Virus record (IMG/VR): IMGVR_UViG_3300030372_004350 | Location: 1-35,847 of that record | Direction: 5' to 3' (one strand) | DNA length: 35,847 nucleotides | DNA from: a virus | Lineage: Duplodnaviria; Caudoviricetes | Position numbers and translations under genes: made by a program | The notes under the pieces: generated by a model | Databases searched by the model: none | The model's input: the letters and a program-made list of their open reading frames with translations, nothing else | What the model was told of the DNA's origin: nothing | In this document: in pieces, positions 16,388 through 35,847 of the stretch | Layout: the number at the start of each line of letters is the position of its first letter | How positions within the stretch are numbered: the first letter of the stretch is position 1

Positions 16388-16720
16388 ATGGCATTCATCC
16401 GTAATCCTCAAGTAGCCAATAGCCCAATGGCTAACGCTAATACACAAGGCGCTGATGTTTCAGCGATCGTGACCAAGGGCTCAACGGGCACCATCTTTGG
16501 TAGCGGTGGCTTGTACACTGAAGGGTACTACCTGATCCTTCAGAACACGGGCACGGTTAACCTTGAGGTGTTGTTCAACGCATCAGCTGACGGCATTATC
16601 CTTTACCCTGCTGCTACCTTTGAGGTGGCTGTCTCCGAAGGCACCAAAGTGTTGCTCAAGAACACGACGGCAGCAGTCGGCGGTACTGACGGGGCTGCCC
16701 AAGTCCTACTGTTTGCATAA
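16388..16720 (+). CDS. Small beta-sandwich virion protein (possible capsid spike base or decoration)
   Basis: 110 aa. 'LILQNTGTVNLEV...GIILYPAATFEV' jelly-roll-like pattern. Last gene of the late arm. Confidence 0.5.
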   Translation: MAFIRNPQVANSPMANANTQGADVSAIVTKGSTGTIFGSGGLYTEGYYLILQNTGTVNLEVLFNASADGIILYPAATFEVAVSEGTKVLLKNTTAAVGGTDGAAQVLLFA

Positions 16721-16818
16721 CACCCAGACTTCCTGTAAGGAGCACCTAAGCCTTCTCTGAAGGTTTGGGGTACCCGAAAGGGTGTGAAGGTCCGGGGTGG
16801 TTCCCGGACTTTCTTTTT
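16721..16818 (+). ncRNA. Candidate structured 3'-UTR RNA / sRNA
   Basis: Consecutive hairpins: CCTAAGCCTTC-TCT-GAAGGTTTGGG (16745-16769), TACCC-GAAA-GGGTG (16771-16784), then a terminator. G-U pairs and the GNRA loop work on the + strand. Confidence 0.4.
16788..16818 (+). terminator. Rho-independent terminator ending the late arm
   Basis: GTCCGGG-GTGGTT-CCCGGAC followed by TTTCTTTTT, at the convergence of the two arms. Confidence 0.8.
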
Positions 16819-17206
16819 AAAGCAACCCTTTCAGCGAATCAAAGATATTAGCCAGCCGATCATGCAGTGCATCAGCCCTAGCGTTAGCGTCTCTCAGTGC
16901 CTGCTCTTTCTTGCTCAGTTGCTTGACCATACCCTCGGCTGCGGCTTGCGCCTCAGCTACTCTGCGGCGGCACTCTCGCTTCTCTTGGCGCAGTTCTTTC
17001 TCAGTGTTATGGACTAACTCTCGCAGCCCTTTGAGCTTATCGTTGCGAGCATCGCATCGCTGCCTAAGAATAACCACCTTCTTACGCTCGCTTGCTAAAG
17101 CTGCCTCAAGTTTACGGATCTCAATCTTGTTGTCTTCAATCTTTTGAAGCTTGCGTCGTAGTTTAACGTTCTCGCCGACGACGCCTTCGATCAGTGTCTT
17201 ACTCAT
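16817..17206 (-). CDS. Hypothetical coiled-coil protein
   Basis: 129 aa of K/E/R/L heptads. Overlaps the ATPase stop. Confidence 0.7.
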   Translation of the reverse strand: MSKTLIEGVVGENVKLRRKLQKIEDNKIEIRKLEAALASERKKVVILRQRCDARNDKLKGLRELVHNTEKELRQEKRECRRRVAEAQAAAEGMVKQLSKKEQALRDANARADALHDRLANIFDSLKGLL

Positions 17207-17870
17207 TGTTTACTTTTCCCAATCGGCGATCTGGTCCCTTGAGCACCATCATGCCTTCAGTCATTTCAATCATTCTGCTAACGATGTGGTCACCATACAT
17301 GCGCTCTAGTTGTTCCCATGAAACGATGTTCGTGTTCATAAACGTCGGGCGATCATGGGCGTGACGCTCTTGCATGATAAATCGAATCATACTGAGTTGT
17401 GATTCAGTTGGTTTTCGCCGAGACCCACCTAGATCATCGAGCAGAAGCAAAGGCGCTTTGGCGACTCGGTCAATGTACGATGCCCTGCCAGAGTATCCAC
17501 CAGACGCAGAGCGATCAGCGTTTATAAATAGGCCAGCCTCGGTCAGCCAAATCGGCAATCGATTTTCGCCAGGACCCCCTTCTCTATAGTGTCGCGTGCG
17601 TCGAGCGCAGTAGTCATTGAACGCTGCAGTGGTCCAAGTCGTTTTACCTCGACCCACCTCACCGCTCACCAGCAACCAACCCGTATGGCGATCACCGGCT
17701 AAGCGAGCATCAATGACGCTAGCGAGATTGCAGTTGTGCTCATCTCGGAGCAGTGCCTTACGCACGTCAACGGGTGAGCTGACTTCGCTGCGCGTCCAGA
17801 GTCGGTAGGCTTTAGGTACACCGCTGCGCTTCAGGATCGTCATCAGATCCTCGAGGTCATACAGATCCAT
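17199..17870 (-). CDS. DnaC/IstB-like AAA+ ATPase (helicase loader)
   Basis: Walker A GEVGRGKT, Walker B LLLLDDLG, 'R...RPT..TN', 'SR..EM......G.D.R'. Start at 17870 is coupled (TGATG) to the MTase stop. Confidence 0.85.
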   Translation of the reverse strand: MDLYDLEDLMTILKRSGVPKAYRLWTRSEVSSPVDVRKALLRDEHNCNLASVIDARLAGDRHTGWLLVSGEVGRGKTTWTTAAFNDYCARRTRHYREGGPGENRLPIWLTEAGLFINADRSASGGYSGRASYIDRVAKAPLLLLDDLGGSRRKPTESQLSMIRFIMQERHAHDRPTFMNTNIVSWEQLERMYGDHIVSRMIEMTEGMMVLKGPDRRLGKVNNE

Positions 17871-18582
17871 CAGACACCTGCCTTTGCTCTGAGTTGATGC
17901 CATGCGAACGGCACCACGCTTGCCACTTGTCCATTGCCAAGGGCTTTAAGTCTGTCCATCCGATGGGCCAAGCCATCAACCACGCGATCCACGGCGGGTT
18001 CAGCTTGCCACCAACCTGCGCCCCCAGTGTCGGCGTGTTGCGCTGATGCTCTGAGGGGTACCCTCCCTCCTTGGCGTTGTGCGCTGTCGGTGTAGGCAAG
18101 TACCCAGAGCCTGTCCCTCTCATGAGGGGCGCCGATGGCCGAAGCGGGAAAGCAATCCCAGACCGAATCATACCCGATCTCGGCCAAGTCTCCGAGTACC
18201 TGTCCAAGGTATCCATTCCCAGCGCTAAGCAAGCCTGGGACGTTCTCCAGTAAGACAAACCTTGGTCCGACTTCGCTAACGATGCGAAGGGTTGCGGGCC
18301 ATCCGTTGCGCTCATCGTCCCCTGCTGCCTGCTTACCGGCAACACTAAAAGGTTGGCACGGGAATCCCGCAGTGACGACATCCACGATTCCAGACCAAGC
18401 GTTCCCGTCAAAAGTGTTGCAGTCGTCCCAGATTGGGAACAGGGGAAGCACACCGTCTCGCTGCCTTCGGAGGAGCACCTCTCGGCAATACGGCTCTTTC
18501 TCCACGGCGCAGACGGTTCGCCATCCGAGCAAGTGGGCGCCGAGGATACCCCCACCAGCTCCGGCAAATAATGCCAACTCAT
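17857..18582 (-). CDS. Alternative-frame polypeptide carrying C5-MTase motif IX (EcoHK31I beta-like)
   Basis: 241-codon open frame fully overlapping the MTase. Contains 'LPTPTA' and 'GKLNPPWIAWLMAWPIGWT', resembling motif IX. True start may be internal. Confidence 0.65.
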   Translation of the reverse strand: MSWHYLPELVGVSSAPTCSDGEPSAPWRKSRIAERCSSEGSETVCFPCSQSGTTATLLTGTLGLESWMSSLRDSRANLLVLPVSRQQGTMSATDGPQPFASLAKSDQGLSYWRTSQACLALGMDTLDRYSETWPRSGMIRSGIAFPLRPSAPLMRGTGSGYLPTPTAHNAKEGGYPSEHQRNTPTLGAQVGGKLNPPWIAWLMAWPIGWTDLKPLAMDKWQAWCRSHGINSEQRQVSDGSV

Positions 18583-19008: not shown

Positions 19009-19385
19009 TCGGAACCCTCATCTGTTGAGACGGGCTCAAACTCCTGAGGTAGACCATCGGGGTGTGGTGAGTCATTCTCAAACATAATAACCCGCCCATG
19101 CTCTTGGTTCAGGTCGCCCATGATCCCCCTGATCCGCTCGAGGGCTTGTTGCGCTGCTCGAAAGTGAACCAAGTAGGACGCGTCACTGATCGAAAAGTTT
19201 TTATCGACTTCTTTGCATTCAGCGCGGAATGTTGTGATCTCGGCAAAGAGCATTTTATTGAGCGTGAGCCGTGTTTTCGTTTCGCGCCAAGTTTTGCCCT
19301 CCGCCAACAAGGCTCGCACCTCCGCATTGTATGGAGCGCGCAGCTTGTCCCAGTGCGGGTATGACATCTTCTTCTTAGGCATCAC
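19005..19385 (-). CDS. Hypothetical protein
   Basis: 126 aa, GGAGG RBS, coupled to rusA. Confidence 0.7.
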   Translation of the reverse strand: MMPKKKMSYPHWDKLRAPYNAEVRALLAEGKTWRETKTRLTLNKMLFAEITTFRAECKEVDKNFSISDASYLVHFRAAQQALERIRGIMGDLNQEHGRVIMFENDSPHPDGLPQEFEPVSTDEGSE

Positions 19386-19391
19386 CCCTCC

Positions 19392-19766
19392 CTAAAAAGG
19401 CGAGGCAGCGTCATTGTCGCCACCTTGCTGGTAATAGTTGCCGTAGTTGCCACCGCCAGTGGCAGGTGCTGCGCTCTGTTTCTTGGGGCTCAGGTACTGG
19501 ACACGGAAGACTGTAACCGACAGGCGGTTGTCTTCGCCGTAGGTATCGAGACGACCCTCGACGAATATCTGGCGACCCTTCTCGCCGTGCTTGGCTAGGC
19601 TCTCTGCTGTTTTACCAAAGGCAGTGACCCAGACCCATGTCGTTTTCTCTTCACCGTTGACCATGCTGTTCATGGCTAGCGACAGTCGGGCTCGAGGCCC
19701 GCTCTGTCCTACGTTGATCTCAGGATCGACACCCATACGACCGATTAACATTACTTTATTCACCAT
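19392..19766 (-). CDS. ssb: Single-stranded DNA-binding protein
   Basis: 'VNKVMLIGRMGVDPE', 'TTWV.V.AFGK.AE', 'KG.QIFVEGRL', G/Q-rich tail ending in PF. Confidence 0.92.
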   Translation of the reverse strand: MVNKVMLIGRMGVDPEINVGQSGPRARLSLAMNSMVNGEEKTTWVWVTAFGKTAESLAKHGEKGRQIFVEGRLDTYGEDNRLSVTVFRVQYLSPKKQSAAPATGGGNYGNYYQQGGDNDAASPF

Positions 19767-20433
19767 CAGATTGTCCCTTCAGAGCGATCATGCGCTCCGT
19801 ATAAAGCCGACGCAGCGGCGCTTTTAGTTCATTGCCCACATCAAGGGCAGCTAAGTCTTTACCTAAGTCGAGCAGCACATCGACGCTGGGCGCTGTCTCG
19901 ATGGCTTCACGCCACTCATCCATGCCAGTGTCTTGGCTAGGCTTGGTGGCAGCAGGGGCGCCATCCCTCTTGGGCAAAGCCCATGCTGGTAGTTTGGGCG
20001 GATCCCAATACGCAGGCTTGCCCGATTTTGATTTGTGGTAGATATGACCCTTGGGCTTGAGATGGCACCAGACCATCGGCAGATCGTACAAGTAACGACC
20101 GATACCCCAATGCACAGCAGCGCGCTTGAGCGCAGACGACAACCCACCTTTGACTGCTTCGATGTCGGTGTTCGGTGATCCGTCGGCCTTGGTGACCCAC
20201 TCACCATCCGGTCCTTTGCAGGACAACTCGCACACCACGCCACCATCCGGTCCTTTGACGTACTTAGTCGCCCAACCAAACGGCCCGAACACGTCATCAA
20301 GACGCTGTTGTACGGCTCGAGATGTCAGGTATGCCAAGGCACTAACCTTGTCTCCATTGCGCGTGGTTTGACCCACTCGCCACTCAATATCCTCTGGCGC
20401 AAAAGGCGCCTTTAGTTTTGCCATGATATCCAT
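19756..20433 (-). CDS. Sak / Rad52-22 family ssDNA annealing protein
   Basis: 'L.APF..EDIEWRV', 'LAY...RAVQQRLD.V.G..GW', 'KGG.S.ALKRAAV.WGIGRYLY'. GGAGG RBS before ATG 20433. Confidence 0.9.
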   Translation of the reverse strand: MDIMAKLKAPFAPEDIEWRVGQTTRNGDKVSALAYLTSRAVQQRLDDVFGPFGWATKYVKGPDGGVVCELSCKGPDGEWVTKADGSPNTDIEAVKGGLSSALKRAAVHWGIGRYLYDLPMVWCHLKPKGHIYHKSKSGKPAYWDPPKLPAWALPKRDGAPAATKPSQDTGMDEWREAIETAPSVDVLLDLGKDLAALDVGNELKAPLRRLYTERMIALKGQSDGE

Positions 20434-20441
20434 GGTACCTC

Positions 20442-21179
20442 CTACAGGTTTAGGGTTTGGTAGCCAGGCCACCGACCTGACTCAATACAATCAGCATACA
20501 CAGCAAGACCCCGCTCAAGCTTGGCGTTGCCGTTCTCAATGATCTCATCCGATGCCCAGACCAAACGAGGTAGGGCGCTGTCCTTCTCAACAAACAACCA
20601 GCCCCACTTCGGCGATACACCGTGCACAGACTCAACGGCTCGGATGTACATGGCAGCTGACAGATCGTAATCATAACGACGGATAGCCGAGTGGATACCG
20701 TAGTTGGATGCGTCGGCAGTAGTCTTGAGATCGATCATCACCGAGTGATCAGACGCTAGCCAATCGGGCTTAGCTTTGCAGTTAGCGCCAGTCGCTGGGT
20801 CAACCCAGTCAATGCGTCGCTCGACCAAAGCATCCTCGGCTAGGATCGCAGCGACATCGCTGTCAGCATAGACCCCGTCTCGCATGCGGAACATCTCATC
20901 CCAGTCATCTTGCTTGAGACCACCAGCAAACTCTTCATTGGCTAACCATTGAGTATACTTTGCCGTGCCAGGATGAGCTGGCGCAAAGCCATACTGTTGA
21001 CGGCATACCGCTTCACCTTCGAGCACCAGCGCATGAAACGCAGACCCAAAGACTAATGCACGGCTAACGGGCTCAGGTGCCGACTCAGCATAACGTTGAT
21101 AGAAGTGAGCGGGGGTTTTGTTGATGATCAACTTGACCCCACTGCTCGAGATCGAATCAATACCTCGATGATAGTTCAT
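20442..21179 (-). CDS. RecE/exonuclease VIII-like PD-(D/E)XK nuclease (DUF3799-like)
   Basis: 'ISSS.VK', 'GSAFHALVLE', 'CKAKPDW', 'IDLKTT', 'Y.LSAAMY', 'FVEK', 'WPGY'. Confidence 0.88.
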   Translation of the reverse strand: MNYHRGIDSISSSGVKLIINKTPAHFYQRYAESAPEPVSRALVFGSAFHALVLEGEAVCRQQYGFAPAHPGTAKYTQWLANEEFAGGLKQDDWDEMFRMRDGVYADSDVAAILAEDALVERRIDWVDPATGANCKAKPDWLASDHSVMIDLKTTADASNYGIHSAIRRYDYDLSAAMYIRAVESVHGVSPKWGWLFVEKDSALPRLVWASDEIIENGNAKLERGLAVYADCIESGRWPGYQTLNL

Positions 21180-21658
21180 GAGATCACCTCTCGGACAAAG
21201 CCCCGTAGTTTACGCCATGACTTGAGCACCAGCGCCCACTCTTCACGCACGCGCTCAGGCTCTTGAAAGCGCGCAGCCTCTTCTAAAATCGCAACTTCAC
21301 TGCGTACCACCAGCGCCCAGTTGCTGATGGCGTCATAGGTGTGCTTGGTGGGTTCTGCTTGGTCATCGTTGTCAATAGCGACGCTGCGATGCACCAGCAC
21401 CGAAGCCCAGCGCCCCGTTCGAGTACGACGCCGACGACCAGACGGTAGTAGTTTACCTGCTTGTTTCAACTCGGTAACACGCGCAGACCCAGTCTGATAG
21501 GCTATATCGAAGTGAACCAGCACCTCATCAGATGTGGCACCACGATCGCCTTGCAAGCGAACCCAGTTCTCGATCCTAAAGCGCAGCGCTGGAGCCATCT
21601 TAGCGATGGACTCAGCAGCTTCACGCGACTCATTGTTAAATAGATTTGAGTTAGGCAT
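21176..21658 (-). CDS. Winged helix-turn-helix DNA-binding protein
   Basis: 'GATSDEV.......QTGSARVTELKQAG....GRRR.TRTGR.A.V' pattern common in phage wHTH proteins. Start taken at ATG 21658 (GGAGG upstream). Confidence 0.7.
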   Translation of the reverse strand: MPNSNLFNNESREAAESIAKMAPALRFRIENWVRLQGDRGATSDEVLVHFDIAYQTGSARVTELKQAGKLLPSGRRRRTRTGRWASVLVHRSVAIDNDDQAEPTKHTYDAISNWALVVRSEVAILEEAARFQEPERVREEWALVLKSWRKLRGFVREVIS

Positions 21659-21905
21659 AGCAGTATCTAGCCTCCGCAACCTCTTCCCAGTAAAGCTCCA
21701 ACGCCTCACGGCAAGCGGTCTCATAATAGTTGTCAGTATATTGGACCTGTTCATCATGCATGTCTTGATCGACAGTGCCTTCCCCTTTGCAATCGGGGCA
21801 GTCCAACTCTAGCTCTCTAATATCCGCTGGATGAGTGCTTGCCTGCTCGGCTGTGTAGACTAGCCCGTACCCATCGCAAACCCGGCATTTATACTCACTC
21901 GCCAT
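21651..21905 (-). CDS. Small DnaJ-type zinc-finger protein
   Basis: Two CxxCxGxG repeats (CRVCDGYG, CPDCKGEG). GGAGG RBS before ATG 21905. Confidence 0.72.
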   Translation of the reverse strand: MASEYKCRVCDGYGLVYTAEQASTHPADIRELELDCPDCKGEGTVDQDMHDEQVQYTDNYYETACREALELYWEEVAEARYCYA

Positions 21906-22173
21906 CGTTTGATCCTCCGTCATGGTTGCTAAGCACAGGCGCGATGATCTGAACATCAACACCTGTCTTACGTTTGATAAACTCAGTGGCGCGCTCAATG
22001 ACGCTGTCAGCCGATCCAGTAAACCGAGCATCAACACCAGACACACCATCGAACAGACGAACAACGGTTGCGCCATTCTTGTCCATGGCAATGAGACACC
22101 GCGACCCTTTGCCGTCGATGTCTGCATGCCAATCGATGTACGCATCCTTGCGCTTTCCTAGTGCAAAGATCAT
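21895..22173 (-). CDS. Hypothetical protein
   Basis: 92 aa, ATGA-coupled, fills the operon. Confidence 0.6.
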   Translation of the reverse strand: MIFALGKRKDAYIDWHADIDGKGSRCLIAMDKNGATVVRLFDGVSGVDARFTGSADSVIERATEFIKRKTGVDVQIIAPVLSNHDGGSNDGE

Positions 22174-22367
22174 GCATCACCCCCTAGCAACCCTAGAGGA
22201 TCATCCGCCAAGATACGGTCTAAAGTCATAGGCTCTGACGTGCCAGGGTCTGGGCAAGTGAAACAGAGGTGCTCGACTTCAGGCTCATAGCGACGGCGAA
22301 CCGATGAGCCGATAGGAGTCTTACACACCATGCAGTGCAGTTTGTAGTGGACCCACTTGCTAGTCAT
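22170..22367 (-). CDS. Small putative zinc-binding protein
   Basis: CMVC...CFTC. GAGGAG RBS before ATG 22367. Confidence 0.6.
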   Translation of the reverse strand: MTSKWVHYKLHCMVCKTPIGSSVRRRYEPEVEHLCFTCPDPGTSEPMTLDRILADDPLGLLGGDA

Positions 22368-22662
22368 CGCTGTTCTCCTCAAAAGTTAAAGTGGATGGAT
22401 CGTAACCAACCAATGCACCAACCGCCTGTTCAAGGTCTCGCTCCGGGTGTAGTTGATCCAGAATATCAACTAGCTTTTCATTGATCCCCTCAAGAGCATC
22501 GTGAACGCGCCTTTGTTTAGGTGTATGGGGCTCGATGGTGTGCTGCGCCATAGCCAAACGAGTGATGCCTTGGTGCAGATCGTTCACCGCACAACTCACC
22601 AACTCATAAATCAATTTATCTTCTTTGGTCGCTGGCAAATTGCCTCGACGTGGATAACCCAT
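22360..22662 (-). CDS. Hypothetical protein, first gene of the middle (recombination/replication) operon
   Basis: GGAGG RBS before ATG 22662, downstream of a promoter-like site. Confidence 0.68.
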   Translation of the reverse strand: MGYPRRGNLPATKEDKLIYELVSCAVNDLHQGITRLAMAQHTIEPHTPKQRRVHDALEGINEKLVDILDQLHPERDLEQAVGALVGYDPSTLTFEENSDD

Positions 22663-22697
22663 AATGCCTCCTATGGTTTTGGGTTTGGGGTAATAGG

Positions 22698-22726
22698 TAT
22701 ATACACAGGCCAAGACCCACTTGCAA
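22698..22726 (-). promoter_or_regulatory. Sigma70-like promoter for the middle operon
   Basis: TTGCAA-17 bp-TATATA on the - strand, followed by the CCCCAAACC box and an RBS. Confidence 0.55.
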
Positions 22727-22790
22727 GCCCCATCTCAAAAATAACTCTAGAGACTTTACAAGCACTTAGGGCCCGGCCGTGTTTTTTGTT

Positions 22791-23180
22791 TTAACCGTTT
22801 TTCTTTGGGTCGATCGGCCGATACCCACTTGTTAACTGATCCCGTAGAGCGCTTTCATTCTTTGCCTGGTCGATCAATTGCATTGCGTCGCTATCGGGTA
22901 TCTCAAGCGGGAACGGTTCAACGCCAGCGCGGACCTTCTCGGTAAGCTGTCGCACGCGTCTAGGTGTGATCCCGTAGCGCTTTGCTGTGCTTGCCGTAGG
23001 AGTAGGATCAGACGCTATCACGCAGGCGCAATAGAAGCGCACCACGTCTACCGCTGGCGCTATCTGTCGACGGCTTGGCACGTAGACGCGCAATGCTCCC
23101 GCCTCGCTTGCTATCAACGGATCATTCAACAGAGCCGTTTGCGTGCTTGGTTTGAGATTTTTAAAATGTAGGTTTTTCAA
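22791..23180 (-). CDS. Mor-like transcription regulator (HTH)
   Basis: 'aGalrVYVP' plus 'tAKRYGITPRRVRQL' matches the Mor/C activator layout. TTG start with AGGGGG RBS. Confidence 0.55.
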   Translation of the reverse strand: MKNLHFKNLKPSTQTALLNDPLIASEAGALRVYVPSRRQIAPAVDVVRFYCACVIASDPTPTASTAKRYGITPRRVRQLTEKVRAGVEPFPLEIPDSDAMQLIDQAKNESALRDQLTSGYRPIDPKKNG

Positions 23181-23197
23181 GGTATTTACCCCCTAGG

Positions 23198-23230
23198 AAA
23201 AAACAGAAAAGACACGCCCGAAGGCGTGCC
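23198..23230 (-). terminator. Rho-independent terminator of the early operon
   Basis: GGCACGCC-TTCG-GGCGTGTC followed by TTTTCTGTTTTTT on the - strand. Confidence 0.88.
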
Positions 23231-23253
23231 TAGTCCGTAGGTTGTTGCGTGCG

Positions 23254-24165
23254 TTAGTGCACAGGATAGGTGATCAAAGGTTTCTCATTATGCCAGCATG
23301 ACCGACAATCGCCACAGATACCGCCGCGAGTATAAGCCGGGCATACCGCCCCAGGTGTCTCGCCTGTGCTGGATACGCTAGACGCTAAAACGTTATTGTT
23401 GCCCTTTGGCATAGGATGCACATCAACGCGCGGTGAACTGATACGCACGGTCAAGTTGAACGGTAAGGGACCATGCTCTTTAATCCATCGCTTGACGGTT
23501 GCACGTTCCTGAGTGGGTAGCCAGTGTTGCAAGTCAGGGGTTGCTTTGACTACGTCCATCAATAGGACCATATAACCATACGAAAACACGTCTCCCGCAT
23601 CATGCCAACGAAAGTAACGCGCCTTATCGTAGGCAAGCGCGGCCTTAACCCGCTTTTTTTCGATCGGTGGCAATGCGTCAAAGGTTTCTTTAGCTTGGAT
23701 AGCAGACAAACCTAATTCTCTCTGCTCTGGTGTTTCCTTAATGGGCGCGCCGCCTTTGAGAATACGCAAGCCACCAGCGCCGCACCTGAACTTAGCCGCA
23801 AGGGCCGCGTGATACAGGTTCATACTTTGCTTGTCAGGCTTGCCAAGTTTAGCGACGCGAGCGCGTGCCTTAATCAATTGACCGTTGAGATACCCGGCGA
23901 AAGTAGACACCCACTTGTCACGGTAGGTAGTCGATGCAATGGCACGCTTAACGAAAGTATAACGGAGCGCCTGCGCATTGCGCACATTAGGCATCTGATA
24001 GCGTCCTTTGAGCGCATAGCAATTCTCACATGGCGTACCAGGTACACCGGCAAGCTTTGCGCCGATAGGACAAGTCACAATAGCCGGTAGGCTGAATGAT
24101 CCACCCGGCATTTTATCCGTATACGTTAGCGAACCGCAAACGCGCTTAAATTGAACGTAGTTCAT
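23254..24165 (-). CDS. Gp88-family protein (Cys-rich, putative Fe-S / radical-SAM-like)
   Basis: 'KMP..SFSLPA..TCP...C..CYA.KG.Y', 'FRWHDAGD', 'HWLPT.E', 'NLTVRIS', C-terminal Cx8Cx2Cx2C. Confidence 0.8.
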   Translation of the reverse strand: MNYVQFKRVCGSLTYTDKMPGGSFSLPAIVTCPIGAKLAGVPGTPCENCYALKGRYQMPNVRNAQALRYTFVKRAIASTTYRDKWVSTFAGYLNGQLIKARARVAKLGKPDKQSMNLYHAALAAKFRCGAGGLRILKGGAPIKETPEQRELGLSAIQAKETFDALPPIEKKRVKAALAYDKARYFRWHDAGDVFSYGYMVLLMDVVKATPDLQHWLPTQERATVKRWIKEHGPLPFNLTVRISSPRVDVHPMPKGNNNVLASSVSSTGETPGAVCPAYTRGGICGDCRSCWHNEKPLITYPVH

Positions 24166-24193
24166 TCTAATTCTCTCAGGGTTTGGGGGTTGT

Positions 24194-24421
24194 TTATTCG
24201 GTTGTGTCTAGCGAGTTACCGAACCAGATTAGAACGTTTCCGGCATTATCTGAATTGAGCCGATCAAGTGCACGTTGTAAGCGCGCTGCGCTTAGCGAGC
24301 GCATGCCACCGCGTAAACGGATGGCGTCAACGTCGCTATGCTGGTTATCCAAAGCGAGTATTTCAAGCGCGGCTTGTGCGCGTACTAGATCTCTATGGTT
24401 GATTACTACAGGGTTTTTCAT
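24194..24421 (-). CDS. Small early hypothetical protein
   Basis: 75 aa, preceded by the repeated leader. Confidence 0.65.
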   Translation of the reverse strand: MKNPVVINHRDLVRAQAALEILALDNQHSDVDAIRLRGGMRSLSAARLQRALDRLNSDNAGNVLIWFGNSLDTTE

Positions 24422-24453
24422 GGTCTAATTCTCTCAAGGTTTGGGGGTTTAGT

Positions 24454-24642
24454 TTAGAAAGGGAAACCTTCGTTTTCGAGCTGATCGGTTGCATACTCTT
24501 TGGGCGTTAGTTCATCGCTCCACGCGTCTACGCTCATACCGTCAGATAAATCGTCAATTCCAACACCCGCGATGTTCATCACGATAGCGTCAACTTTAGC
24601 GTACCATTGCTTATAGGTGAGACCGTTAATTGTTTTATTCAT
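24454..24642 (-). CDS. Small early hypothetical protein
   Basis: 62 aa, acidic, AAGGA RBS and repeated leader. Confidence 0.7.
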   Translation of the reverse strand: MNKTINGLTYKQWYAKVDAIVMNIAGVGIDDLSDGMSVDAWSDELTPKEYATDQLENEGFPF

Positions 24643-24656
24643 GGTTTAATATCCTT

Positions 24657-24854
24657 CTAGGTTTGGGGTTTAGTGGTCTTACCCCATGAGTTGGGGTAGT
24701 TGTGAATAGTACCGTAAAAGGCCTGACGTGTATGCGCTGCTCTCTGCTCACGGTCGGCTTTAGTACTTCGCCAGAATGGTTTCATCGCTTTAGCGATTTC
24801 CTCATCGCTTTCGCCTCGCTTGAGCATCGGAAAGATTATATCCCAATTAAACAT
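24657..24854 (-). CDS. Small early hypothetical protein
   Basis: 65 aa, AAAGG RBS and repeated leader. Confidence 0.65.
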   Translation of the reverse strand: MFNWDIIFPMLKRGESDEEIAKAMKPFWRSTKADREQRAAHTRQAFYGTIHNYPNSWGKTTKPQT

Positions 24855-24884
24855 TATTTCTGCCTTTCTTTAATGGTTTGGGGT

Positions 24885-25106
24885 TTAGTTAGCGTCGCAG
24901 TAATCAGTAGCGAGATCATCAAGGTTAATGCCCTTTAACACACGAAGGACGAACTGAAGATCAGCAAGGGTCTTACGATGTTCATCGAGAATAAAGCCAC
25001 AATCATCATCGGACCAAGCGGATTTAACTTGGTCTAGTTTAATTTTCGCAAGCAATACCTCGCGTCGCAATATCGACTCGGCTTTGGATTTATCTAGGTT
25101 TTTCAT
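24885..25106 (-). CDS. Small early hypothetical protein (first early gene)
   Basis: 73 aa, AAGGAAGG RBS, downstream of a TTGACA promoter. Confidence 0.68.
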   Translation of the reverse strand: MKNLDKSKAESILRREVLLAKIKLDQVKSAWSDDDCGFILDEHRKTLADLQFVLRVLKGINLDDLATDYCDAN

Positions 25107-25153
25107 GTAGTTACCTTCCTTTAGGTGGTTTGGGGTGTCTTTCGACTGTTTAG

Positions 25154-25182
25154 GTATTAGCCCCTAGGCAAAGTATTGTCAA
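25154..25182 (-). promoter_or_regulatory. Sigma70-like early promoter
   Basis: Consensus TTGACA, 17 bp spacer, TAATAC on the - strand. Confidence 0.62.
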
Positions 25183-25322
25183 ACATATTCCGCAAACGGC
25201 TAGCCATACATGCAGGCAATGCCTGGCTTCGCGTGCGCGGGCGTACATGTGTGATGTGGTGGGTATGGGGTTGTGTGTGTTCCTTGGGTGAGTGGGTAGG
25301 GTTACCTTGCCCGTGTGCTGGC

Positions 25323-25350
25323 GAACCTAGAACCGAAGAACCTAGAACCG
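25323..25350. repeat. Tandem direct repeat GAACCTAGAACCG x2 (15 bp period)
   Basis: Seen directly in the long non-coding region. Confidence 0.8.
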
Positions 25351-25723
25351 TTGGTGGTGGTGGTGGGTGGCGGTCCTAAACTGCGCTAGTTTGAACCGTG
25401 GTTCGTGGTGCTGGTTAGTGGTTGATTTATCGCTAGCGCCCCAAAGCCCGGGTAAGCGATGTACTGGTAGGGCGATACCAAAAGCCTGAATCTGTTTCCA
25501 GTTGTTATACCCTCTTCCACCCGGAACGAGTTTTTCAACCCTCAACAAGAAGATTATATAATACTGGAGCTGACTGGCTGGTGTGTATTGCTGGCGGATC
25601 GTGCGTGCTCGAGCAATCAGGCTCAATAGCATTTAAAAGGCTACTATCTATTTACTTACCATATGAGTTTTTAGAATTGCAATAGGGTTTGTTGGGTACG
25701 AGGTTCTCGTGGGTTTCAGGTGG

Positions 25724-25774
25724 CTGCCATTCTGACAGTCCGAGTTAACCCTACAGTGACTGCCATTTTGGCAG
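25724..25774. promoter_or_regulatory. Pair of palindromic operator-like sites
   Basis: CTGCCA-TTC-TGACAG (25724-25738) and CTGCCA-TTT-TGGCAG (25760-25774). Confidence 0.45.
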
Positions 25775-25775
25775 G

Positions 25776-26006
25776 TTACTCAAAGGTAACCATGTCGATG
25801 TCGTCAAACGCGGGTTTCATGAGGTCTTGATGGGTGCGTGCTGCCCAGTCGAGTGCTTTGTTGGCGTCGTCAATGTGGGATCGGTAAATGCTAAGTTCGT
25901 TCATTTGCACATGGCTAAGCTCGCCTCTCATGGCTTGGACCATGCCTGGGCGGCCTAGTGCGATAATGCCTCGGATGACTGCGGTGGTAAGTTTGACTTT
26001 TCGCAT
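25776..26006 (-). CDS. Hypothetical protein
   Basis: 76 aa, AAGG upstream, divergent from the late arm. Confidence 0.6.
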   Translation of the reverse strand: MRKVKLTTAVIRGIIALGRPGMVQAMRGELSHVQMNELSIYRSHIDDANKALDWAARTHQDLMKPAFDDIDMVTFE

Positions 26007-26071
26007 GGGGAACCTTTCATTGGGTGTTGTTGTTGCGAAGGATACTTAACTTGCTGTAGTTAGCCTTTGTC

Positions 26072-26425
26072 ATGGATAGCAATCAAATTTTACAAATGCT
26101 GGCAGACTTTGGTGCTCTAGGCTTAGCGTCCGGTGCGATCTTCTGGCTGTATTTGAAGATGGCTAAACGGCTTGATGATCTAACGGATAACTTTCAAAAG
26201 CAGCTTCGTGAACAAATGGAAGACTGCAATCGCCGAGAAGCAGAAGTGCGAGATCGGTTTATGGAAGTCGTCAACAAGTACGACACCGAACGGCTCCAGT
26301 GGGTAACACGACTAGACGCCATCGAGAAAGAAGTGCAGGATATCGAAGGCCTTATTAAAGAAGGTCTGGGTGAAATGCGTAAACACTACGCAAAGATTAG
26401 CGCTGTAATTGGAAAGGAAGTCTGA
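26072..26425 (+). CDS. Membrane protein, one TM plus coiled coil (holin-like / BhlA-like architecture)
   Basis: 'FGALGLASGAIFWLYL' hydrophobic segment followed by heptad repeats. Confidence 0.65.
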   Translation: MDSNQILQMLADFGALGLASGAIFWLYLKMAKRLDDLTDNFQKQLREQMEDCNRREAEVRDRFMEVVNKYDTERLQWVTRLDAIEKEVQDIEGLIKEGLGEMRKHYAKISAVIGKEV

Positions 26426-26571
26426 TGCAGTTTGACTTGATGCACCTGCCTGATGATATTCCTATTGCGGTGCCGATCGAAGATGATGGTCAGATCGATT
26501 CACGCACATTGTTGATTATGCGCAATGAAGCATGGCGGTTAGTACAGTTAATTACCGGGAAGGAAGCCTGA
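26425..26571 (+). CDS. 48 aa hypothetical protein (not in the ORF track)
   Basis: MQFDLMHLPDDIPIAVPIEDDGQIDSRTLLIMRNEAWRLVQLITGKEA. TGATG-coupled on both sides, AAGGAAG RBS. Confidence 0.65.
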   Translation: MQFDLMHLPDDIPIAVPIEDDGQIDSRTLLIMRNEAWRLVQLITGKEA

Positions 26572-27425
26572 TGGCGAATTACAAATTGAATCTTCAAAGC
26601 CCAGAAATGACAACAGGGGCTGAAGGTTTTGAAACCTATGAAGAGCAGGACAAACGAAAAAAACGATTCCTGAAAGAAAGTAAGCGTAAGCAGGCAGCGG
26701 TTAGGCTGGCTAGCCAGCAACAGTCGCGCCGTGAAAATATTAAGGAAACTGCATTTTCGGTAGGACAGGCAGCGGCCGAAGAAGCCATTATGTCGATGAT
26801 CCCTGTTGCACGGATCGGCAAACTTGCAAAACTTGTGAAGGGCTTGAGCAAAGGCAGCAGCAGAAAAGAAGTTTCTAAAGCCCTGAAAGAGGGCGGTTTT
26901 GATAAACTAGCAAGCACCAAGCCGAGCCAGTCTGAACTAAACCGACAGGTTAAAGTGGCCCAGGCGCGCGAGCAGGCCGCAGATGCTACCAAGAGAGCAA
27001 AATTAGATGCTCAGGCGTCAAAGCGTGCTCGAGAGAGTGATCGCATGGAAATAGGGGAATCAAAGTCTAGAGACAAAGAACGGCGCAGCAAAGCTGTTAA
27101 ACGGGAAGTTCGAGCACAAGAAGAGCTGGATAAAGTGATCGGGCGGCCACCGGTAGAGCGTAAAGAGGCTATGCGCCAAGCAGAAAAAGAAATAGCTGAA
27201 TTCCAAAACATTATCAAAGACCCGCAAAGAGCGGAAATGGTGCAACGCAGCCCGTCGGTTGCATTGGCCAAGCGCACTATCGAAGATATTAAAAAAGCTA
27301 AAACAGCCGAAGAAATTGAAAAGAAAGTCAATCGATTAGCTGACCTTAGTGATACGATTGCTAAGAACGCTGCTAAGCGTAAAGAGGCTATGCGCAAAGC
27401 GGCTGAGGCCAAAGCGCGCAAGTAA
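26571..27425 (+). CDS. K/E/A-rich helical protein (possible internal virion protein)
   Basis: Start at 26571 (TGATG, AAGGAAG RBS). Ends in EAMRKAAEAKARK. Confidence 0.7.
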   Translation: MANYKLNLQSPEMTTGAEGFETYEEQDKRKKRFLKESKRKQAAVRLASQQQSRRENIKETAFSVGQAAAEEAIMSMIPVARIGKLAKLVKGLSKGSSRKEVSKALKEGGFDKLASTKPSQSELNRQVKVAQAREQAADATKRAKLDAQASKRARESDRMEIGESKSRDKERRSKAVKREVRAQEELDKVIGRPPVERKEAMRQAEKEIAEFQNIIKDPQRAEMVQRSPSVALAKRTIEDIKKAKTAEEIEKKVNRLADLSDTIAKNAAKRKEAMRKAAEAKARK

Positions 27426-28264: not shown

Positions 28265-28797
28265 TGTCTCGCAAGCCACGTATTATTCTCCCAGCAGCGG
28301 TATGGGCTAAGATCCGTGCCGAGTATGAAGCCGGTGTGCCCGTCAAGCACCTAGCGGATACCTTTAACCTGACTGAAGCAGCCGTCTATCGACGCAAGAA
28401 AAGCGAAGAGTGGTCTAGGGAGGTTTCGGTCATTAGTGACGACATGCTGTCCAAGGCACGCAAGGAAGCTGAGCAGCGCATTGTAGAGCACATCCAAGAG
28501 CGTGAAGTGGACATGAAGCAGGTCATTGACCAACACAAGTCCGTGTCGCAACAGATCATGGATCGTGCAGCAAGCCTACTCGAGGCCGTTGATAAGATCC
28601 CAGATACTGAGGTTTCTAAAAAGGCACACGCTCTGAAGACCTTGTCTGATGTCATCACCGCTCAGATCCGTAACGAGCGACGCACATGGAACATCGATGA
28701 GAAGGGTGCGGACACTTCACTCGAGGCATTGCTCGACGAACTGGATGAAGAAGACGAGAAGCGCAAAGCAACCCCCAAACCTGTGGTCGTACAGTGA
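28264..28797 (+). CDS. terS: Terminase small subunit
   Basis: N-terminal HTH 'W.KIRAEYEAG.PVK.LA..F......VYRRKK.E.W', helical body, upstream of terL. Confidence 0.75.
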   Translation: MSRKPRIILPAAVWAKIRAEYEAGVPVKHLADTFNLTEAAVYRRKKSEEWSREVSVISDDMLSKARKEAEQRIVEHIQEREVDMKQVIDQHKSVSQQIMDRAASLLEAVDKIPDTEVSKKAHALKTLSDVITAQIRNERRTWNIDEKGADTSLEALLDELDEEDEKRKATPKPVVVQ

Positions 28798-33181: not shown

Positions 33182-33188
33182 TACTCAC

Positions 33189-33335
33189 GTGGAGTGGATT
33201 GCTCTCTCACTGGATCTGGCTCAGACCGCGTTGGTGTTTATCATCTGGCGTGATGTTCGGAACTGGTGGGGGAGTGATCCCTCTGAGGACGTTAACAAAC
33301 CTTTCTCGCCTCAAGATATTCTTGGGGAACCATAG
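33189..33335 (+). CDS. 48 aa putative membrane peptide (not in the ORF track)
   Basis: GTG start, MEWIALSLDLAQTALVFIIWRDVRNWWGSDPSEDVNKPFSPQDILGEP. Fills the gap after the MCP. Confidence 0.5.
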   Translation: MEWIALSLDLAQTALVFIIWRDVRNWWGSDPSEDVNKPFSPQDILGEP

Positions 33336-33343
33336 GTGGTCAA

Positions 33344-34003: not shown

Positions 34004-35847
34004 ATGAAGATTCCTGACGCAGGTAAACTCTCGGATCAGATTGCAAAGTGTAGAAGTGATCGGCAGAAGTTTGCTCGTGCTTGGGATCTTTGCTTGTTGT
34101 TTCTTCAGGGTAAGCAGCACGTTAAATACGACAGGGTAAAGCAAACCTTCGTGCGCACGGGCGCTGACGAGATGCAGGTAACCATTAACCTGATCGTCAA
34201 TATCTACCGCAACGTTCAGGCTCGCCTAACACTGGCTTACCCATCAGCCACCGTGTTGCCCGCCAGCGAATCAAACGAAGACATTATCAAAGCAAAGAGC
34301 TGCGAGTACGCACTCAAGTATTACTGGAACAGTGACAAGCTTAAGCGCAAGATGGTGGACGCTATCCGGTGGTTGCTGACTTGTGGCAACGTGGGAATGC
34401 ACACCAAGTACAACGGCGAGAAAGTAACCACTGAGGTTATTAGTCCTTACGATTTGTACTTTGAGCCTGGTCTTGATGACCCTGAGCAGTGCAACTGGAT
34501 TGCGTACGCTAAGCTTGTCAATCGTGAAGAACTTGAGGAAGCGTACCCAAATAAGAAAGACGTAATTAAGAACGCTGCTGATGCGACGAACGCTACTCCG
34601 GGTGCTTCATGGTTCAGGCTTCGTCAAACGTCGGTACCGAAAGATAGGGTTGAGATTTATGATGTTTACTTTCGCAGCGGTGAGCGTCGGGTTGTTCTTG
34701 GTGGTAGTTATCTTTTTGAGGGGGAGTGGGTAGGTAAAACCATGCCGATCCAGTTTATCCGTTACACACCAGTACCGGGTCAGCTGTGGGGTATGGGCAT
34801 GATTGAGCCGTTGCTCGATATTCAGGACCAGTACAACCGAGTGCGTGGTCAGATTATCGAGAACAGTGATCTGATCGCCAACCCGAAGTGGATGATCCCA
34901 AAGAGCGCAGGTGTTCCACCAGCAAGTATTACTCGTCGGCGTGGTGAGAAAGTCTACTACAACGACGTAGGTGGCCAGCGGCCTATTCCGGTTCAGATGC
35001 CGTCTTTACCTGGTTACGTTCTTCAGCAGGTGTCAGTACTGCACGGAGAGATGCTAGACGTGGCTGGCGTCCACGCTACAAGCCTTGGCAAGCGAGCGGT
35101 AGGGGTTACCTCCAGTGTTGCTATGCAGTCGCTTGCAAACAAAGACTCGCAACAGTTGATGGTGACACAAGAAGACTTAGAAGAAGCTGTAGTCGATCTA
35201 AGCAAGGTCGTGCTGACGCTTATGCAAAAGTATTACACCGAGAAGCGTATGGTTCGCATGCTCGACAATCTCGGCCAAGTTGTGTTCCAGTCACTAGACA
35301 GCACAAGCTTAATGAAAGATCCTGAAGTCTTCATTGAAGCAGGTTCGATGTTCCGTGATGAGCGTAAAGATCGCGATCAAAAGGTTCTTGAGTTAGTTCA
35401 GATGGGCATGATGCAACCCGACGAAGCGATGAAGGAACTGACGTTTGGTAACGGGCTTGAGCAGGTCAGTGAGAAACTTCAATCTATGGCGCATGCTCAG
35501 GATCTGCTTAACGCTGCGAAAGTTGGCGCTACGATTGAGATCTTCCCAACCGATGACCTAAAGTCGTTTGGTGAAGTCTTTGGTGACTATATCCGTACTG
35601 AGGAATACTACCAACTACCTCAAGAGCGGCAGCAGTACATCCGAGACATCTTCATTAGTGTTGAGACGTTCGGCACGCAGGCTGAGGTCCAAGCTGAGGC
35701 GCTCGCCAACCGCAAGGTGTTCCCTCGCTCTGCGCCTCCAGAGCAGCTAGATGAGATTTCAGTCACCATGGAATCGCCGACATCGGCTATTCAAGCGCAG
35801 ATGGAATCAGAGCGCATGGGTGTTATGGATATGAACCGGCAAATGGT
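34004..35847 (+). CDS. Portal protein (3'-truncated by the window end; not in the ORF track)
   Basis: ATG at 34004 with TAAGG RBS (MKIPDAGKL...). In frame with ATG 34742, which equals position 81 of the left copy. Confidence 0.87.
   Translation, partial: MKIPDAGKLSDQIAKCRSDRQKFARAWDLCLLFLQGKQHVKYDRVKQTFVRTGADEMQVTINLIVNIYRNVQARLTLAYPSATVLPASESNEDIIKAKSCEYALKYYWNSDKLKRKMVDAIRWLLTCGNVGMHTKYNGEKVTTEVISPYDLYFEPGLDDPEQCNWIAYAKLVNREELEEAYPNKKDVIKNAADATNATPGASWFRLRQTSVPKDRVEIYDVYFRSGERRVVLGGSYLFEGEWVGKTMPIQFIRYTPVPGQLWGMGMIEPLLDIQDQYNRVRGQIIENSDLIANPKWMIPKSAGVPPASITRRRGEKVYYNDVGGQRPIPVQMPSLPGYVLQQVSVLHGEMLDVAGVHATSLGKRAVGVTSSVAMQSLANKDSQQLMVTQEDLEEAVVDLSKVVLTLMQKYYTEKRMVRMLDNLGQVVFQSLDSTSLMKDPEVFIEAGSMFRDERKDRDQKVLELVQMGMMQPDEAMKELTFGNGLEQVSEKLQSMAHAQDLLNAAKVGATIEIFPTDDLKSFGEVFGDYIRTEEYYQLPQERQQYIRDIFISVETFGTQAEVQAEALANRKVFPRSAPPEQLDEISVTMESPTSAIQAQMESERMGVMDMNRQM
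34662..35847 (+). repeat. Imperfect direct repeat, right copy (pairs with 1-1186)
   Basis: Same alignment as the left copy. Confidence 0.97.

Follow-up and report, generated by a model that had tools for sequence, protein, structure and literature searches.

A structured element at the junction of two convergent operons

The 35,847-nt stretch of viral DNA analysed here (the window) carries, where two converging operons meet, a short structured segment that is antisense to the leaders of several genes transcribed from the opposite strand. This raises the question of whether the segment encodes a regulatory RNA and, if so, which transcripts it would act on and when it would be made. The window represents the nearly complete genome, about 34.7 kb long, of a tailed phage, and its ends overlap by 1186 nt; since this overlap (1-1186 versus 34662-35847) is just 92% identical, it suggests that two strains were merged at the assembly ends. 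The late region lies on the + strand, encodes terminase, capsid, portal and endolysin, and ends at 16720. The early/middle region lies on the − strand, encodes GP88-like, exonuclease, Sak/Rad52-like, SSB, RusA, methylase and DnaC-like proteins, and ends at 16817; the labels early, middle and late were assigned from gene content. Marine and seawater metagenome runs contain this DNA, and the 24 runs listed included no RNA run. GTDB scans returned no relative of the capsid, and the endolysin matches found there were unrelated. Neither a tRNA search of the window nor blastn against cultured phages found anything, and no integrase or repressor was recognised among the 50 proteins scanned.

Three further features of the genome were noted. 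A long stable hairpin region lies 3′ of the major capsid gene on the + strand (33182-33340, −64 kcal/mol over 158 nt). A 117-aa gene (26072-26425) is 89% identical in the relative G001, whose capsid is 53% identical, which suggests recent exchange. The C5 DNA methylase gene (17870-18582) is missing between rusA and the DnaC-like gene in the relatives G024, G025, L009 and L024.

The junction is flanked upstream by the last late-operon gene (16388..16720, + strand, 110 aa) and downstream by the last gene of the convergent middle operon (16817..17206, − strand), whose stop codon overlaps the U-tract of a terminator. An earlier note on this DNA described 16721-16818 on the + strand as an 11-bp hairpin, a GAAA-tetraloop hairpin and a terminator, and our folding reproduced all three, the GAAA hairpin in the centroid structure. 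The + strand folds at −46 kcal/mol (z −3.55, 0/200 shuffles as good), the − strand more weakly at −36.5 kcal/mol (z −2.31). The 11-bp hairpin, with two G-U pairs, spans 16745..16769, the GNRA-tetraloop hairpin 16771..16784, and the intrinsic terminator, common to the predicted small RNA (sRNA) and the late operon, 16786..16818; the first small hairpin of the 98-nt fold consists of the spacer and −10 of the promoter-like site described below. Rfam gave 0 matches in the window at the gathering score, and relaxing the E-value brought up sub-threshold, unrelated matches only. Ribozyme and CsrA-site readings were tried and dropped; the GGA-like hairpin falls within the promoter spacer.

The element mirrors a box repeated in early and middle leaders

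The 9-nt box CCCCAAACC has eight exact copies in the window, at 16762, 22682, 24180, 24438, 24660, 24875 and 25127 on the − strand and at 28773 on the + strand. With at most one mismatch there are 16 matches against 6.8 expected, a count reached by 0/100 shuffles. Six exact copies and the variant CCCTAAACC sit before a Shine-Dalgarno (SD) sequence and a start codon on the − strand. As candidate targets, judged by the exact copy and the pairing rank given below, these are the boxes at 25127..25135 in the leader of the first early gene (start 25106), at 24875..24883 (gene starting at 24854) and at 24660..24668 (gene starting at 24642). Two more are supported by extended matches as well as by rank: 24438..24446, in the leader of the gene starting at 24421, which is the best-pairing target, and 24180..24188, in the leader of the GP88-like gene starting at 24165. 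At 22675..22690 a box and a variant together precede the gene starting at 22662, at the predicted 5′ end of the middle transcript, and at 20447..20455 the variant box lies in the leader of the Sak/Rad52-like gene, inside the 3′ end of the exonuclease gene. The predicted targets therefore comprise Sak, the gene that heads the middle operon and five early genes with separate initiation; the majority belong to no known family, and none to an antirepressor family. A k-mer screen over all leaders was too noisy for use.

The remaining − strand copy is that of the junction. The earlier note had matched 16753-16770 to 24429-24446 and 24171-24188, and both alignments were recovered, at 94% (17/18) and 89% (16/18) respectively, as were the exact copies that make the 9-nt core complementary to the leaders at 25127, 24875, 24660 and 22682. 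The pairing across the box stands; the account needed correction in its reach, because the SD sequences of all seven leaders are covered too. The segment 16750-16770 holds complements of the SD and of the box, CCCYAAACC, in the correct order. Its anti-SD part (16750..16758, + strand) forms the 5′ arm and loop of the seed hairpin and is invariant in the window, L024 and G024. Its anti-box part (16762..16770, + strand) reads GGUUUGGGG, the last four G of which are unpaired in the fold of the predicted 71-nt RNA and would serve as a toehold.

Two sites fared differently. The copy at 28773, previously counted as a target leader, lies within terS codons ahead of an overlapping start, is not accompanied by an SD, and has disappeared from both of the more diverged relatives examined, G024 and G025; it is probably a coding coincidence and not a target. 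At Sak, 20447-20455 does read CCCTAAACC as reported, while its G-U wobble, read there as what RNA-RNA recognition would lead one to expect, may have another origin: the variant falls within the final codons of the exonuclease gene, and codon constraint rather than selection for a wobble may account for its T.

Pairing with the box leaders stands out in the genome

With opening energies included, the 71-nt RNA ranks the seven box leaders 1-7 of 44 start regions (−12.1 to −19.8 kcal/mol, the next at −8.5), and the 98-nt form likewise ranks them 1-7 of 44. Duplexes formed by 16750-16770 cover box and SD in 7/7 leaders at −25.2 to −29.4 kcal/mol, compared to −21.8 for the best other start region. 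Simple cofold energies do not separate the two groups (box leaders −7.2 to −13.5, non-box up to −10.8). In a genome-wide scan of 21-nt windows (step 3, G+T at least 12), the seed came 2nd among 8094 scored windows with overlaps collapsed, the others in the top eight being the leaders' own opposite strands. The best window scored −25.5 versus a shuffled mean of −12.8 and minimum of −17.6 (60 shuffles), and the observed junction values were each reached by 0/60 shuffled junctions. The proposal that one seed pairs with the early/middle leader set is supported by these ranks, by G-U pairs that exist on the + strand only, and by the matched change in a distant phage described below. A conserved, accessible seed complementary to several translation-initiation regions, as predicted here, is characteristic of trans-acting base-pairing sRNAs.

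A promoter-like site precedes the seed

The earlier note took the RNA to be late and derived from a 3′ UTR. A promoter-like site of the early class directly before the seed, placing the predicted 5′ end at 16748, argues against this. The site follows a sigma70-like pattern, TTGCAT-17-TAAGGA, with the predicted −35 at 16713..16718 (+ strand), over the final codons of the late operon's last gene, the predicted −10 at 16736..16741 (+ strand), and +1 at A16748. The predicted 71-nt transcript (16748..16818, + strand) folds at −35.1 kcal/mol (z −4.30, 0/200 shuffles) in the order seed, GNRA hairpin, terminator. The early and middle promoters of the window have the form TTG[AC][AC]A-17-TA....-6 nt-purine, followed immediately by a 5′ hairpin or box; they are the predicted early promoter TTGACA-17-TAATAC (25147..25182, − strand, +1 at 25147) and the predicted middle promoter TTGCAA-17-TATATA (22691..22726, − strand, +1 at 22691, right before the box).

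A looser scan 5′ of the seed gave one match per junction in four junctions, with +1 at the seed each time. The tightened pattern occurs once in each of 6/6 junctions from four lineages (the window, L024, G024, G002, G016 and G001, at capsid identities of about 49% or more), and +1 falls at the seed in the first five of these. In more distant relatives it was present in 0/11 junctions, which had been guessed by a crude ORF caller. The −35 is TTGCAT in G024, L024 and G001, TTGACA in G002 and TTGACG in G016, always 17 nt before the TA. The sixth position of the pattern was widened after the sRNA sites had been seen, and TTGCAT overlaps codons; the TTGACA of G002 fits the strict pattern and sits in non-coding DNA. 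Genome-wide, the tightened pattern has four matches in the window (sRNA, early, middle and one other) and three in G002, including its early and middle promoters. The fourth match in the window, at 21787 on the + strand, is antisense within middle genes and may be due to chance or an antisense promoter.

At all three promoter-like sites of the window (22691-22726, 25147-25182 and 16713-16748) the −10 lacks the T at −7, and a generic promoter scanner misses all of these promoters because it demands that base. Promoters with a −10 lacking the −7 T are typical of the CarD-dependent promoters of alphaproteobacteria, and the missing T is a possible clue to the host. In addition, a divergent DNA contig matches the window from 16750 on only (16750-16818, with 8 differences), which fits a 5′ end at 16748. 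The unit is probably the 71-nt RNA 16748-16818 and not a processed late UTR; its own promoter, its intrinsic terminator and the lack of a conserved ORF, as expected for an sRNA gene, are seen at the level of sequence patterns.

The choice of 5′ end bears on the caveat, raised previously, that the seed is sequestered in its own stem. The seed is indeed masked, and more weakly so from +1, where the stem has 8 bp, costs about 8.7 kcal/mol to open and leaves four G free. The 11-bp hairpin reaches its full length in read-through late mRNA only, where 15-17 kcal/mol would be needed to open the seed, leaving a net binding of −4 to −13. The strongest alternative retains the same pairing and has the RNA made late, by read-through or processing of the 3′ end of the late mRNA, with the promoter-like site weak or unused. 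The position of the element at the end of the late operon, the shared terminator and the poor match of the −10 hexamers to TATAAT all suit this alternative, as do the longer wobble stems (11 bp in the window, 13 bp in G002), which exist in read-through RNA only and look selected. The high cost of opening the seed in that RNA argues against it, as does the recurrence of the promoter pattern, with the same spacing and a purine at +1, in 6/6 junctions, including the perfect non-coding TTGACA in G002. We consider late production unlikely as the source of the RNA; the two sources are not mutually exclusive.

The seed is conserved in close relatives

Three distinct versions of the junction were compared, those of the window, L024 and G024. 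The RNA is 97/98 identical between the window and L024, versus 77% for the upstream gene, and the 27-nt seed hairpin is identical between the window and G024, versus 88% and 65% for the flanking genes. Over four helices, 96/96 cells pair on the + strand, with two double-sided and two wobble changes; in G024 the GNRA hairpin has GAAA replaced by GCAA and an A-U pair by G-C, and the terminator has one double-sided and one wobble change. Structure covariation among these three sequences is not significant (61/500 shuffles). The G024 seed ranks 4th among 7961 windows at −26.1, with an unrelated window (the end of ssb with a G-rich SD) close by at −25.2.

The CCCHAAACC box is repeated in leaders of the close clade only. 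Early genes turn over between close relatives, and each relative keeps the box. One relative, L003/G025, carries CCCTAAACC at all seven leader sites, and the seed of the window would pair with the six scored sites at −20.6 to −25.6. Its record ends in the DnaC-like gene, short of the junction, and no contig identifiable as belonging to it was found in 8 DNA runs.

Seed and box change together in a distant phage

The capsid alignment comprised 77 loci, of which 23 records were read whole or in part, and then some more. G002 (capsid 49%, complete) has a different box, CCCACAACC, before GAGGAG at two leaders and in looser form at two others. Its late/middle junction, the counterpart of that in the window, holds a copy matching CCCACAACC that is antisense on the late strand. 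Seed and leader have thus changed together, the covariation among relatives that the earlier note had proposed as a check; it amounts to one switch between two lineages. The G002 seed ranks 4th of 7886 windows at −28.8, with the next non-leader window at −21.8, and no other non-leader window scores as high as the opposite strands of the leaders themselves; this seed pairs over 16-17 bp with two leaders. Each seed favours its own leaders, with mean energies of −26.2 and −28.5 versus −19.1 and −20.4 when the seeds of the window and G002 are crossed. With opening costs included, the best two G002 box leaders rank 1-2 of 47 and the looser two 3rd and 5th, with a non-box leader 4th; just two box leaders of this phage are strong, and two to three are weaker. 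Its read-through RNA forms a 13-bp hairpin with four G-U pairs, analogous to the 11-bp hairpin of the window. The stem formed from +1 has 8 bp in the window and 5-7 bp in G002 and G016.

The G016 junction (22905-23000, L137) has a promoter, an anti-SD hairpin, a G/U-rich stretch and a terminator. Its seed predicts a third type of leader; none of that type was found before a family gene, the early region lying off the contig. In G001 (1835-1967, − strand, L108; early region missing from the record) the promoter and terminator are kept, and the RNA body differs, with two hairpins bearing UUCCA loops. The antisense copy is absent from G007, G008, G012 and G013 (capsid 35-39%) despite repeated leaders of their own, indicating that leader repeats do not need the RNA. 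By analogy with the GcvB targets described in PMC3879156, such repeats are probably unstructured C/A-rich ribosome-loading stretches.

As a separate observation, G002 (19080-20930) and G012 (20300-26700) share a repeated early-leader hairpin with an internal loop, placed before a C/A-rich spacer and the SD; G012 has about 13 leaders of the AACGGAGA type. These hairpins are possibly processing or stabilising stems.

Readings that place the function on the other strand or in the DNA

The junction yielded no terminator for the − strand; middle transcripts may therefore continue across it and titrate the RNA. The same fact admits an alternative in which the functional copy is on the − strand: the 3′ end of the middle transcript would display the box as a decoy, protein site or sponge, and the + strand structures would serve termination only. 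The box is unpaired on that strand, an SD mimic is hidden there in a 5-bp hairpin in G024 and G002, and distant relatives have leader repeats without the antisense RNA. However, the G-U pairs of the extended helix become A-C mismatches on the − strand (2/11 in the window, 4/13 in G002), it is the + strand that carries the GNRA loop, the U-tract and the promoter, and no candidate binding protein was identified among the proteins of the window that were scanned. This makes a − strand function rather improbable, a little more so than late production.

Alternatively, the junction copy might be the relic or active leader of a − strand gene, either one left behind by an early cassette where the middle operon ends or that of a small antisense ORF. 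A GTG does lie at a usable distance after the SD-like AGAGAAGG in the window and L024, and early cassettes turn over between relatives with the box kept. The GTG is, however, GCA in G024, the downstream frames vary (29, 45 and 13 aa), conservation of the seed exceeds that of the flanking genes, and G002 has a different box in this place, all of which largely refutes this explanation and leaves it with little probability. Least probable of all is a DNA-level site (operator or phage promoter) of which the junction copy would be one more instance: an asymmetric 9-mer repeated before co-regulated genes would suit it, but the boxes lie downstream of the predicted +1 and abut the SD, and the junction copy mirrors the SD too, within + strand-specific RNA helices.

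Proposed mechanism

The complementarity and its conservation, the parallel change in G002, and a junction that also holds a promoter-like site and a terminator come together in the reading that we prefer, at a probability of roughly 70%: the junction is a stand-alone gene for a 71-base sRNA that would pair, through its complementary seed, with box and ribosome site in seven early/middle leaders and block their translation. Antisense pairing as such, whatever its timing, we regard as very likely. Under this model, host RNA polymerase would begin to transcribe the sRNA at infection and continue thereafter, using a −10 that departs more from consensus than the −10s of the early promoters do; such a promoter, early in class yet poor at its −10, suggests that the RNA builds up gradually and shuts off its targets with a delay. 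The free GGGG would dock on the unstructured C/A-rich box, and strand displacement would then open the 8-bp stem that hides the anti-SD part, such that box-bearing leaders alone are bound. The stem would act as a specificity gate, since anti-SD pairing by itself could not pay the opening cost. The accumulating sRNA would shut off translation of the five early genes, the middle head gene and Sak, acting as a delay timer, while in read-through late mRNA the longer wobble stem would mask the seed.

A broader and much more tentative idea, which we hold to be doubtful, is that the system forms an RNA address code. Each independently translated early gene would carry a lineage-specific C/A-rich tag read by one toehold-gated sRNA, which would time the early-to-late transition without a protein repressor. 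Once enough of it had built up, it would also silence a second incoming phage with the same tag, a c4-like exclusion in an apparently lytic phage, and tag and seed would consequently diversify together.

Relation to known systems

The c4 RNA of P1/P7 (Rfam C4) is described as a phage-encoded RNA of about 77 nt in which one element occludes the RBS and a second, upstream, gives specificity, the latter differing between related phages (PMC5320573, PMC12197685). The RNA of the window resembles it in bipartite pairing, with box and SD covered in 7/7 leaders, and in a specificity element that changes with its targets between related phages, here in one switch between the window and G002. It lacks other features of c4, namely a three-stem fold, RNase P processing and control of an antirepressor operon in lysogeny. 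It has instead a fold with a 5′ seed and a terminator, at least seven dispersed predicted early-gene targets and no Rfam match.

GcvB, as presented in PMC3879156, represses multiple targets through a G/U-rich seed that binds C/A-rich, translation-enhancing sequences just 5′ of the SD, and the RNA of the window likewise would pair a G/U seed with C/A-rich leaders of several genes. GcvB is a chromosomal sRNA of enteric bacteria with amino-acid transport targets and Hfq dependence, whereas the RNA considered here is phage-encoded, has phage-gene targets, covers the SD too, has a stem-masked seed and gave no match to the Rfam GcvB family. Our best reading is that it works like P1 c4 and GcvB and belongs to neither family.

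Other phage-encoded base-pairing RNAs that tune phage development, VpdS, PreS and 24B_1, differ in what they target: as described in PMC12197685, they act on host mRNAs, by Hfq competition or on a single phage gene, and not through an address shared by early leaders. An sRNA directed at the phage's own early leaders was not found in the literature searched, which includes most of that review. The seed motifs were absent from the six supplementary files of PMC10690425 that were searched, and the catalogue as a whole may still hold the RNA.

Repeated motifs over early-gene starts are common in phages, and their partner is an acknowledged open question, as for the SAS of Cluster K (PMC3203893). 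In the window a candidate partner is visible in the same genome, changing with the motif. If confirmed, a single sRNA, rather than a protein, would switch off the early regulon of the phage that encodes it, and the lineages would provide seed/address pairs that are naturally orthogonal and already gated by a toehold. Given its small size, the system could be tested with the 71-nt RNA and a leader reporter.

A further parallel comes from those mycobacteriophages. According to PMC3203893, the SAS/ESAS is an asymmetric motif repeated over the RBS of many non-structural genes, K1 phages have one reversed SAS copy away from any gene start, and the authors regard the partner, an RNA or a protein, as undetermined. 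The likeness is that of a repeated RBS motif with a single reversed copy; the phages and motif are unrelated to those studied here. No reversed SAS copy was found in Pixie, 25-61 kb. In Anaya (JF704106, L324:34871-34883, between genes 96 and 97) the single reversed SAS, which PMC3203893 notes and leaves unexplained, forms the apical loop of a long hairpin. There a terminator-like hairpin with UUUU follows on the sense-reading strand, the opposite of the arrangement in the window; this suggests a small decoy RNA, and on the other strand the loop would read as anti-SAS.
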